A stretch of DNA of 64,000 nt from Candidatus Moraniibacteriota bacterium (lineage in GTDB: Bacteria; Patescibacteriota; Minisyncoccia; Moranbacterales; GCA-2747515). The notes under the pieces are model-generated. The model saw nothing but the letters and a program-made list of their open reading frames with translations, was not told the DNA's origin and searched no databases. The DNA lies in assembly GCA_027031495.1 (NCBI GenBank), contig JALVQA010000004.1:56070-120069 (forward strand), written 5' to 3'. Below are positions 9,641 through 27,995 of this stretch, in pieces. Position 1 is the first letter of the stretch, and each line of letters starts with the position of its first letter. Position numbers and translations under genes: made by a program.

Positions 9641-9702
9641 AGTTTTGCTTCTTATATCATTATGTTCGTATCGTGCATCATCGCTTCGTCAAAGATATTG
9701 AA

Positions 9703-10019
9703 CGCAAAACACCTGCCATGCGGCAGGTGCGTGTATTCACATTCTGTGTGTAGAAAGGGATTTGAGCAAGTACGCAGTGTTAGGCCACCGCATACTGCGG
9801 ACCTTGCGAGCCAAAGACCGATATTTGCTGTGCGCACATTTCTGTGCAGACAGCAAACGAGGAGAGAGATTTTTCGGTCATTTGCACTATCATCAAGGTC
9901 CGTGCTCAGAACTGCGTGCCACAATACAAAAATTAATTGCACCGTTTGCAGCAGGACCCCCTTTCTACACGCAAAACACGAACACATCCACCAACTCTAC
10001 ATCAAGGAACACCACATCC
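9703..10019 (-). ncRNA. Candidate structured ncRNA (RNA-S, ~300 nt), family unknown
   Basis: Promoter TGGACA-17-TACACT (-10 at 10026-10031). A ~27-bp closing stem whose G.U wobbles work only on the minus strand, several nested stems, and terminator cacctgcc-gcat-ggcaggtg-tttt at ~9705-9729. Confidence 0.6.
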
Positions 10020-10169
10020 ACCAACAGTGTAGCATGTTTTACACACTCTGTCCAATTATTGCGTATAAGCCCATTAGGCTCCATGTATGAATATGTAATA
10101 CTAAATAAACAGAGTAGTTCTACAAGAAATATATGTATTGTTAAATTCCTTTGTACATAACTAATAACA

Positions 10170-10214
10170 AAAAAATTGGAAGGAGGGGTAGTGGTGTTAC
10201 ACCACCCCTCCGCC
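10170..10214 (-). terminator. Intrinsic terminator after the 141-aa ORF
   Basis: Minus strand ggaggggtggtg-taa-caccactacccctcc followed by a U-tract. Confidence 0.6.
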
Positions 10215-10219
10215 GAGAA

Positions 10220-10690: not shown

Positions 10691-11342
10691 AAAAAAAATG
10701 TCACTCGCTGTTACGAGCGACGCCATTACAAGAATTTACACACCATTCTTACAACAGCGTCGCTCACAAAAAAGTGCTGCATCTATATTGTACAGCGCCC
10801 TTTGTATAATTACCTACCTGCAGAAAGCATTTCTACAGGCCATGGGTGGTTAGACCATCACCTGCAGCAGAAACTTTCTGCAAGAAAGTTCTGGGCGTCG
10901 TCATGCCGTTCGTGCGGGTATCACGTTGGACCCACTCACACTACTAGGGCGCAGTGCGTGATATCACATTAGATATCATCTCTTTCACTCTTCGTTGAGA
11001 GACACCGCTCATGCGACTTTTTACATGTTCATAAAATGAATATTTTCCCGTGCGTTTCTCCTCTCTCTCCTCATTGTCTCTGCCTAAGAGACTGTGAGAA
11101 AGGCATAGAACGCACACATCTTATGACCATTGCTTCAACTAAGGTACTGCTCATGTAAAGAACATTCTGACTGTATTTGCAGTCAGTACGCTGCGCATAC
11201 TCTTGCGCAAATACTGACAACAAAAAGCAGTACATCTCTTGAGAGTATGTACTGCTGCATTCGTCAGTTGGCGGTAGTATATACTCTCTCCTCTGTCCGT
11301 AAGCATCGATTGCCTAAAATCGTTTGCGCTACGTCCGTGATG
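10691..11342 (-). ncRNA. Candidate large structured ncRNA or leader (RNA-L, ~570-650 nt)
   Basis: Promoter TTGACA-17-TATAGT at ~11376-11348. No credible ORF. Many hairpins; the 5' ACCATCAC pairs with GTGATGGT (10854-10861). Terminator-like hairpins at ~10768-10798 and 10691-10721. Confidence 0.55.
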
Positions 11343-11390
11343 GTGCAACTATAGCATATATAAAAAATATTGTCAAGTACTTACTCCTAC

Positions 11391-12470
11391 ATTCTCATCC
11401 CAATCTTAATTCCTCCACAAAAAAGACATCCCTTGATATAATTGCAGATCTCTATACCTAACAGTTAACCATGGACAGGGATATCTCACACACATATTAC
11501 ACCATCTCATCGTACAGTGATAGTAGCACTGTTGCGTGCCGGTGTTTCCCAAAAGGATATTGCCGCACAACTCGGCAAAACGCCGAGTGCCATCTCTCAA
11601 AAAAAGATTAAGCGCAACAATGATGCTGACGGTGTCTACAGAAAGCGTACCGCTCAGGAAAGAACGACACGTCGCAGAGTTACTGTCAATCAGCGCTTTC
11701 GTGAACTAGCTCATGATCCGTGGCTCCGTGCATATATGGAACGAAAGCTCAAGATGCGCTGGTCACCGGAGCAGATAAGTGGACGATTGCGACTGCAGTA
11801 TGGCAGTACTCTGGGAAAAGATAGTATATATGCTACGTCTACACTCACCACACGGACTTGGTACAATATCTGCGGTGCAAGAAAGGATCTTTTCGCAGGC
11901 GTTGCGGTACGCGCATCCGTGAAAAAGTGCGTGAACAAGCCAAAATCAGGCGCATTGACACGCAACCAACCATTGTTGAGGCCCGAGAGAGAATCGGTGG
12001 CTGTGAGGGTGATACAATCATTGGAAAATATATGACAAAGCGACTCGTCACAAATGTTGATCGCAAGAGCGGCTACGGCATGATTGATAAGTTGTCAGTT
12101 ATCACGAGAGAAACGATGTTTGCTACGCTGGAGAAGCGCTTTGGTACGGATTGCTAGAAAGAGAAAGTATACGTATACGTACAAAAACGGTGCGGAATTG
12201 GGCAAGGAAGATGCGTGGCTGGAAGAAAAAATCAAGATGGATATCTACAGAGCGTACCCCTACCACTCCTAGGAGCGTGTGTGTAACGAGCTTAGTACGG
12301 GAGTTCTTTCCAAAAGGTACAGACTTTGCTGGAATGTCGGAGAACGAGGTGCGGCGAATAGAGTGCCTGCTCAACAACCGACCTCGCAAGAGACTTGGTT
12401 ACAGAACACCACGGGAAGTCTTTTTTGAGAAAAAAATGTGCATTTTTTTGATTAAGATTTGGGAGAGAAT
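11391..12470 (+). mobile_element. Degraded IS30-family insertion sequence
   Basis: Frameshifted fragments with an HTH (SQKDIAAQLGKTPSAIS), WSPEQISGRL, EGDTIIG, AYPYHS and LNNRPRKRLGYRTP. Imperfect IRs attctcatcccaatcttaat (11391-11410) and attaagatttgggagagaat (12451-12470). Confidence 0.85.
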
Positions 12471-12716
12471 TTAAGAGTTTTGACAATCTCTCACAGTACA
12501 TGGATACTTATGTCAACTCCCAATTTGCCAGTGACACATGGGGCGAGGTTAACTATGTTGGCCAACACTTAAAGGAAAAGGCCTATATCCGGGAGTCCAT
12601 CAATGACTAGATCAAAGCACACGGCGGCAAGCACTATCTTCTCAAGGAATAGCACCATCAAAAAACATCGACATATAGGTGTTTTTTTGATGATGTAGCC
12701 TCCCGGAGGAAATGCC

Positions 12717-16139: not shown

Positions 16140-16927
16140 GTATACCACGCATTGTTACCCTGAAGACTGAAGATTATCCTTCTGTGAAAGCAAACATTGT
16201 AGAGAAACTGAAAATAGGATTGAATCCTGATGAAATCAGTGGAATGATGAATAGAGAACGGCACGACATTATTGCATCAAAAACAACCATCTATCGATGG
16301 TTGTACAGTGCACGTAGACAGCAATATTGTTGGTATCTGTATACACAAGCGGTATGAGAAGAAGAAACGAAGAAAGAAGACCAAGAATGTCATGATTCTC
16401 AATCGGACAAGCATCTAGAAGCGACACCGTGGCGCAATGCGTCGGACACGCTATGAACACTGAGAGGTGGATGCCATTGTATCACTACAAGGAAATCGAG
16501 GGTCACTGTACGCTGCATAGGAACGCATAACACGGTTTGTGCGGATTTTCAAGTGTACTTCTCTGCGTGCACGCGAATATATCCAAAAACACCGTGCCGC
16601 CACAACACAGTGCAACGTTTTGTTCATGACATTCGATAACGGGATTGAAAACAAACAGCATCAGGAGCGCGATGTTCCAACTTTCTTCTGTGACCCCTAT
16701 GCTTCGTGGCAGAAAGGAAGTGTAGAGAATGTGAACAAATTAATCAGACAATATACTCCCAAGTGAATAGAAATTGCCAGAGTGCCGGTAGCATATATTC
16801 AGTTGGTGAGAGAGCATATTAACAGCAAGTCACGGAAAATTCTGAATTACAAAACCGCCTATGAGGCGGCGGTGGAGCATGGTGTATTGAAAAGTGAGAA
16901 GTGCTCTAATTGAGGGTGAAATTTAGG
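16140..16927 (+). mobile_element. Degraded IS30-family transposase
   Basis: Fragments IVEKLKIGLNPDEISG, SKTTIYRWLY, TFDNGIEN and FFCDPYASWQKGSVENVNKLIRQY, with stops and frameshifts. Confidence 0.8.

Positions 16928-27923: not shown

Positions 27924-27995
<72 letters not shown>

Follow-up and report, generated by a model that had tools for sequence, protein, structure and literature searches.

The 64,000-nt stretch of DNA analysed here (the window) belongs to a 1.0-Mb genome (G000) of the Patescibacteria, a group whose gene control is almost unexplored. On its minus strand, a strong promoter is followed by some 570 nt that the first-pass annotation took for a single, free-standing and ornate non-coding RNA. 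The locus thus raises the question whether such an RNA exists, whether it belongs to a known family and what it might do at this position.

Promoter, extent and fold of the element

The near-consensus promoter proposed in that annotation was confirmed. It agrees with the consensus at 11 of 12 positions, has a 17-nt spacer and an extended -10 box, and reads from 11376 to 11348 on the minus strand (Table 1); transcription is predicted to start near 11342, and an equivalent promoter precedes the homologous copy in the congener G002 described below. Folding z-scores were -7.67 for the plus and -7.58 for the minus strand, none of 100 dinucleotide shuffles being equally stable. All stems listed by the first-pass annotation are present in the window sequence, but two of them, the 11159/11020 stem and the 10840-10816 hairpin, have no counterpart in the helix list of G002, and the conserved 3' hairpin is the one at 10867-10833, in place of the last hairpin of that list (10840-10816). 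Similarly, the conserved body stops near 10820 and not at 10770 as had been proposed, which leaves a conserved length of ~530 nt. The long helix said to close the 5' region on the 3' region (P1) is real within the genus: according to the helix lists, G002 has a 7-bp equivalent in which three pairs differ on both sides. P1 is in competition, however, with the 3' hairpin, whose conservation extends more widely, and no general occurrence of P1 was found. The view that the stretch holds no credible ORF was upheld, since the overlapping short ORFs (51-101 aa) share no frame with the homologue by eye, and no conserved small ORF was seen when the window was compared with G002. The whole stretch is covered by one contig of a public sequencing run, possibly that of the source sample; run X3 had no coverage of the element.

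Table 1. Position of the element's parts and of neighbouring features in the window
Feature	Coordinates	Strand	Remarks
Sigma70-type promoter	11348..11376	-	-35 at 11376-11371; extended -10 at 11353-11348
Stems	11344-11337/10861-10854; 11268-11261/11220-11213; 11256-11247/11235-11226; 11186-11180/11173-11167	-	First: 8 bp, arms ~475 nt apart
Further stems	11159-11152/11027-11020; 11116-11109/11056-11049; 10978-10972/10965-10959; 10840-10830/10826-10816	-	
P1, 5' strand	11337..11344	-	Partner 10861-10854; alternative to inner stem of 3' module; similar pairing at contig C21 of G000
5' hairpin	11299..11332	-	Six-base loop 11317-11312; recurs in G002 and on contigs C13 and C21 of G000
Purine-rich motif	11284..11293	-	Second copy 11072-11063
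Terminator-like hairpin with U tract	11217..11259	-	Hairpin 11256-11226; equivalent hairpin and U tract in G002 and C21
P2	11259-11252/10870-10863	-	Alternative pairing of the 5' arm of the first terminator; one two-sided change in G002
Second terminator-like hairpin	11167..11186	-	Stem kept in G002 with two-sided changes
Internal boxA-like 9-mer and second leader-enriched motif	11141..11164	-	9-mer 11164-11156; second motif 11148-11141
Middle domain	11029..11126	-	Helices 11126-11117/11038-11029 and 11116-11109/11056-11049; second six-base-loop hairpin 11092-11076
Core domain	10897..11017	-	Bulged-A closing helix 11017-11010/10905-10897; 7-bp helix 11008-11002/10957-10951
Core hairpins	~11000-10983; 10978-10959; 10935-10914	-	First: pentaloop
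3' module	10823..10879	-	Outer helix 10879-10874/10828-10823; conserved internal loop; hairpin 10867-10833; 9-nt loop 10854-10846
Hairpins after module	10700..10800	-	Conservation in G002 lacking; includes terminator-like site 10721-10700; boxA-like motif absent
Orphan ORF, 141 aa	10220..10645	-	Hydrophobic N terminus; Shine-Dalgarno-like site ~10660-10653
Decayed IS30-like remnant	11517..12474	+	Upstream; outside the element; absent beside the G002 copy

Three terminator-like hairpins lie between the promoter and the 141-aa ORF (Table 1), as compared to 0.03 in shuffles, although this control is a mononucleotide shuffle, which any structured RNA exceeds. The 7-mer of the purine-rich motif occurs in 17 of 25 leaders, where 2.1 were expected, and once on the antisense strand. 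The internal boxA-like 9-mer agrees with E. coli boxA at 8 of 9 positions, a match estimated to arise by chance in ~6% of 530-nt stretches and thus weak on its own. The middle domain is confined to the window and G002. The 141-aa ORF, for which neither a family nor a relative was found by profile and homologue searches, is the likely cargo of the window element. A further decayed IS30-like remnant was noted at ~16184-16766, upstream of the promoter. On the plus strand, an 8-mer at 11270-11277 resembles the RfaH ops site; it is missing from the G002 copy and probably due to chance.

Comparison with known RNA families

The window was compared to the 4227 models of Rfam 15, which include OLE, HEARO, raiA, group I and II introns and riboswitches. 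The only matches at gathering score were tRNAs, and raising the E value to 10 added five unrelated matches far below the cut-offs. The ROOL model found no match in the window at either setting, nor was any match to the Rfam model of the GOLLD 3' domain obtained. The element is thus not ROOL, GOLLD, OLE or any other Rfam 15 family, even though the size class named by the first-pass annotation holds, with a conserved body of ~530 nt compared to 581 nt for ROOL (PMC5737381). It is neither RNase P RNA, which is encoded on contig C20 (122.8 bits), nor tmRNA, which lies on C4 outside the window, and no intron family matched at E values up to 10, so the reported absence of intron signatures stands. 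A reading as intron, retron or TPP-like element, suggested by motifs, was dropped for want of an Rfam match. Rfam searches also gave no match in 18 trmB-flank loci (7 of which carry the module described below; E up to 0.5) or in the C13 cassette of G000, riboswitch families included for the window and the flank loci. In the window, no tRNA gene lies within 16 kb of the element, the closest being at 27924. A background folding score together with a lack of conserved homologues, a match to a decayed coding gene or mobile element, and a known Rfam family had been named in advance as outcomes that would speak against a new RNA; none of them was observed.

A full-length homologue in a congener

BLAST searches of 101 relatives gave one real match, in the congener G002, and a search of 319 relatives again detected G002 only. 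This homologue extends over the full length of the element behind a promoter of its own, with a folding z-score of -3.74. In the RNA core, 101 of 119 columns are identical between both copies (85%), whereas the protein encoded by the adjacent gene is 51% identical and its four-fold sites agree at 39 of 123 positions (32%). The 47 modelled pairs of the two copies are paired in 98.9% of the cells, and 6 of them show two-sided changes, these figures referring to two sequences only; within the 7-bp helix of the core, 4 of 7 pairs show such changes.

The lamin-tail/PKD gene upstream of the window element also precedes the G002 copy. In the congeners G001 and G003 this gene abuts yebC, which indicates that the site is empty there. 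The G002 copy has no insertion sequence beside it and is followed by a separate element of ~115 nt, also found in the C13 cassette of G000 before a STIV B116-like (DUF1874) gene and absent from the window. A second ORF-poor and hairpin-rich stretch of ~570 nt was observed in the window (9650-10219, minus strand) between the 141-aa orphan and yebC; it is missing at the empty site of G001 and G003 and unlike the downstream flank of G002.

Searches farther afield returned little. Phages and plasmids contained no blastn match to the element. Exact-pattern scans found three stretches in GTDB, of which one was real (a G002-type sequence), and two in metagenomes, of which one was real and identical to G002. 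Viral contigs gave 0, 69, 0 and 120 stretches among the matches listed, none with a profile E value below 0.02. A first covariance model, R1, recovered only the window from 151-genome samples of the order and of the phylum, its prefilters having missed true homologues that were found later.

A modular family across Patescibacteria

The R1 model also detected a partial copy in G001, in which the 3' hairpin follows the promoter almost directly and is succeeded by a pentaloop-type hairpin and a boxA-like motif. Profiles of single modules disclosed further copies within G000, one on C21 with the 5' domain and the 3' hairpin but without the core, one on C13 with a boxA-like motif in addition to the 5' domain, and a shared stretch on C3. 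Each of these three heads a run of short orphan genes. A model of the 3' hairpin based on four sequences (R2), in which 48 of 48 cells were paired and 7 of 12 pairs had two-sided changes, led to loci in G004, G014 and G022; these and the C21 locus are divergent from a gene of the TrmB family.

The final model, R3, was built from 11 sequences and found 22 loci in 20 genomes and five families at scores of at least 35 bits, 11 of the loci lying outside the training set. At E values up to 0.02 it matched in 15 of 151 sampled genomes of the order (two dropped), in two others among 151 genomes of the class and in one other among 151 of the phylum. In the 22-row alignment 93.8% of the cells pair, compared to 67.7% in shuffles and 39-48% in slid controls, and all 14 pairs of the 3' module show two-sided changes; as the alignment was fitted to the model and the loci are related, these pairing figures lean upward. 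The bulged-A core is present at 10 loci, and all 10 core-bearing leaders that were tested have its closing helix. When the hairpin was chosen blind, a pseudoknot between its loop and the flank comprised 48 paired bases over 10 leaders (null mean 28.7, maximum 37) and was significant in 7 of them, the exceptions being G014, G097 and the window copy, whose 4 bp are at chance level. It has one two-sided change in G002. A first version of the test, in which the flank picked the hairpin, had given p < 0.05 in only 1 of 10 leaders.

Taken together, comparative sequence evidence identifies the element as a real, uncatalogued and modular RNA element supported by covariation. The free-standing ornate RNA of the first-pass annotation therefore survives in part, being large, conserved, covarying, uncatalogued and provided with its own promoter, but its modules recur in other lengths and orders at the heads of gene cassettes. 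Where an exact promoter was called (15 loci), it lies 285 to 708 nt from the module. The searches found the module a single time at each cassette head, no more than two times in one genome (as in G000, on different contigs) and not between genes, and the enriched leader motifs are strand-specific.

Several weaker matches were set aside, either after inspection as chance or coding sequence (L224, L246, L252, L256-L259, L344 and L345) or on score or alignment alone (L247-L251, L253 and L255). Four TrmB-divergent leaders of families f2 and f5 (L267, L278, L280 and L287), which R3 does not score, carry the loop word of the module in another hairpin, probably a sister module.

boxA-like motif, Nus factors and ribosomal leaders

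The commonest 7-mer within 130 nt after the module is boxA-like. It is present exactly at 11 of the 22 loci (shuffles: mean 0.2, maximum 2) and within one mismatch at 15 (mean 4.4, maximum 9), and only once upstream of the module. A boxA profile detected a variant of it in G002, G001 and C21, and the window copy has no such motif within 130 nt after the module, the best candidate carrying two mismatches. We take the 7-mer to equal the rRNA boxA consensus of Firmicutes. The term boxA-like refers here to the similarity with the Aquifex and E. coli sequences in PMC3177189, which describes boxA as the NusB-NusE site. NusB is encoded by all four congeners tested, and the RNA-binding domain of Rho was detected in none of the four. 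Rho not being found, a boxA on protein-coding cassettes has no obvious textbook purpose. NusG gave a single match in G000, G002 and G014, and two of near-identical score in G268.

The 16S gene of G000 lies on C6 behind an unrelated leader, and no rRNA gene is located downstream of the element. The boxA profile of the cassettes had no match in the 16S leaders of the four congeners (L234-L237), and the NusB of these cells may therefore have another preferred sequence; a different boxA-like variant was observed by eye in these leaders. The anti-Shine-Dalgarno sequence is kept at all three complete 16S ends, although the best Shine-Dalgarno 5-mer precedes only 16 of 467 long ORFs. Housekeeping genes were seen to have A-rich start regions, cassette genes strong Shine-Dalgarno sites.

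Gene cassettes downstream of the probable leaders

A Shine-Dalgarno-led ORF was called downstream of the module at 18 of the 22 loci, and a trmB gene faces it at 16 (12 by tblastn, 3 fetched as trmB flanks, and G111 by coordinates), a share that is inflated because the loci were partly sought through trmB. Among the new whole-genome matches in the order, trmB was facing in 3 of the 5 that could be judged, and conversely 15 of 70 trmB flanks, some of them short, carry the module. Relatives of the TrmB protein occur in 69 of 319 genomes of the order and nearly always face a strong promoter followed by a leader of variable length; one relative of the protein is assigned to Candidatus Moranbacteria. 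The genes downstream of the leaders share no function: 16 of 18 cargo proteins scanned had no family, one was DHH-like and one Csx3-like.

Individual cassettes showed further features. The C13 cassette of G000 (L226, ~24700-21500, minus strand) combines tandem promoters and the same 5' modules with a boxA-like motif and with a STIV B116-like (AcrIII-1-type) gene. On C21 (L228, 12470-16500), a short TrmB-divergent leader precedes a DHH-like gene and several orphans, and similar intergenic hairpins recur by eye between genes on C21 and C13. The third long leader of this genome (L229, C3, 8985-11400) is followed by a downstream stretch common to C21, orphan ORFs and a tRNA-Leu gene. Among the cargo in G022 (L245, 1769-2820) are two ORFs, one P-loop-like and the other similar to the ring nuclease Csx3/Crn3. 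In G001 (L223, contig C116, 1-1119) the gene divergent from the short leader encodes an AAA_14/DUF4143 ATPase and not TrmB.

Possible functions of the element

We give about an even chance to the reading of the element as an antitermination leader for accessory gene cassettes. RNA polymerase would start near 11342 and produce a long 5' leader RNA with intrinsic-terminator-like hairpins. The 3' module and the boxA-like signal would recruit NusB-S10, NusA and NusG onto the polymerase, and the Nus-loaded polymerase would resist later terminators and read into the accessory gene cassette, while TrmB would repress the leader promoter at the trmB-linked loci. We infer transcription, Nus binding, read-through and TrmB repression at these loci from the arrangement of the sequence signals. 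The boxA-like motif after the module, the Shine-Dalgarno-led genes and the variable distance between promoter and module argue for this reading, as do the three terminator-like hairpins before the window ORF and the presence of NusB where Rho was not found. Moreover, a known antitermination system, described in PMC12691694, also combines a leader hairpin with intrinsic terminators. Against it, a multi-domain fold of 530 nt far exceeds the needs of a boxA site, NusG paralogues are lacking in G000, G002 and G014, and the loci are kin, hence not independent, and were partly sought through trmB. The window copy itself departs from the family: trmB is missing, the module is not followed by a boxA, the pseudoknot is weak and an IS30 remnant lies upstream. 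Since its core is 85% identical to that of G002 in spite of the missing downstream boxA, conservation does not need that boxA. This copy probably depends on the boxA-like site inside the leader, or else gives rise mainly to a terminated RNA of 530-640 nt.

It is possible, though doubtful, that the element is instead a stand-alone large ornate RNA similar to ROOL and GOLLD, a tertiary and perhaps multimeric RNA-only body merely co-transcribed with accessory genes. Core identity to G002 far above that of the four-fold sites of the adjacent gene, a loop-flank pseudoknot above the null over 10 leaders, terminator-like hairpins after the module in the window, two six-base loops complementary to the module loop over 5-6 bases (by eye) and a size fitting ROOL (581 nt, PMC5737381) would all suit such a body. 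It agrees poorly with the several-fold variation in length and module content, the module being able to stand nearly alone behind a promoter, with the regular position upstream of boxA and cargo, with the lack of a tRNA within 16 kb in the window and of phage, plasmid or viral homologues for the queries used, and with the chance-level 4-bp pseudoknot of the window copy. If this reading were true, a lineage-specific ornate RNA would be added to those available for structure determination. A two-state attenuator or riboswitch, in which the P1 and P2 strands invade the 3' module and the choice of state depends on a ligand, a protein or the speed of transcription, appears improbable to us. P1 and P2 are kept in G002 with three and one two-sided changes, respectively, and pairing between the module arm and the first 110 nt of the same leader reaches -18.1 (window), -19.6 (G002) and -18.9 kcal/mol (C21), which ranks first or second among 21 non-cognate leaders in each case; furthermore, the forced folds in the window are 5 kcal/mol apart. 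In the other 19 cases, however, the own leader is in the top two only three times, the pairing being mostly unremarkable outside the genus, and the local state is better by 12 kcal/mol in G002. Moreover, the first terminator is already complete ~380 nt before P2 can form, so that P2 could not prevent it within one round of transcription; the downstream genes have no common function and the element no Rfam riboswitch match.

Even less credit can be given to a scaffold that processes or stabilises the cassette mRNA, or to a DNA-level cassette signal of the attC kind suggested for the DUF1874 motif. The ~115-nt element in the G002 flank and the C13 cassette is compatible with it, and the DUF1874 motif is discussed as possibly attC-like in PMC5737381; but the module was found once at each cassette head, at most twice in a genome and not between genes, the enriched motifs are strand-specific and the window does not contain the 115-nt element. 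Hardly credible at all is an origin by chance, from a decayed intron or from IS30 debris. The element does occupy a variable slot next to IS30 remnants, with an empty site in two congeners, but covariation over 22 loci and conservation above saturated neutral sites both refute it as the main explanation, no intron family matched at E values up to 10, no insertion sequence lies beside the G002 copy and one contig spans the stretch.

With its short RNA module, in which covariation is strong, and the clear mutants that it allows, the family lends itself to testing whether an RNA leader confers read-through of intrinsic terminators. It is likewise a marker for the start of orphan cassettes that change rapidly; genes resembling those of ring nucleases or phosphoesterases are found in three of these cassettes and may be relevant to how the epibionts deal with the defences of their hosts. 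A bolder proposal, to which we assign a rather low probability, is that of a new class of large, modular RNAs of Patescibacteria without a dedicated protein. Their covarying 3' module and pseudoknotted core would grip the elongation complex or self-assemble and thereby license TrmB-controlled cassettes with Csx3-like, STIV B116/AcrIII-1-like and DHH enzymes able to destroy host CRISPR alarm signals, strand invasion between the 5' and 3' regions acting as an on/off switch in the genus.

Comparison with known systems

In the literature searched, at the level of titles and abstract openings, no leader of this kind is described for Patescibacteria. The closest arrangements are the boxB-boxA leader of rRNA operons, with NusB-NusE, NusA and NusG, and the lambdoid nut sites. 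They share with the family a strong promoter, an untranslated structured RNA and a stem-loop followed by a boxA-like motif, and nusB is present in the congeners tested. Unlike the rRNA leader, however, the family heads protein-coding orphan cassettes in genomes where Rho was not found, and unlike both it has a 57-nt two-helix module within a leader of up to 700 nt, the window copy being without a downstream boxA. The put and EAR RNA antiterminators are comparable as well, with long leaders, a conserved hairpin and intrinsic terminators before an accessory operon.

The same layout characterises the LoaP-dependent dfn and mln leaders of Bacillus velezensis, where, according to PMC12691694, a leader hairpin confers terminator resistance for LoaP. 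The family differs from them by a single NusG in G000, G002 and G014, a 9-nt loop instead of a UNCG tetraloop, and the boxA-like motif. With ROOL, GOLLD and OLE (PMC12286853 and PMC5737381) the element has in common its size class, many stems, a pseudoknot and a patchy presence among close relatives. ROOL and GOLLD are described there as often located in prophages or near tRNA genes and as forming RNA-only multimeric cages, whereas the present element, known from sequence, has no Rfam match, was not seen in a prophage or tRNA context, varies in length by modules and keeps a fixed place at cassette heads. The DUF1874 RNA motif (Weinberg 2017, PMC5737381) is likewise multistem and lies in the 5' regions of cassette-like genes, and DUF1874-type cargo is found in a sister cassette of G000. 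It is set apart, by its description, in that it repeats in consecutive intergenic regions whereas the family's module is single per cassette, but the motif could overlap with parts of these leaders. If it is indeed an antitermination leader, the element would work like a boxA leader but head protein-coding cassettes, in cells where Rho was not found.
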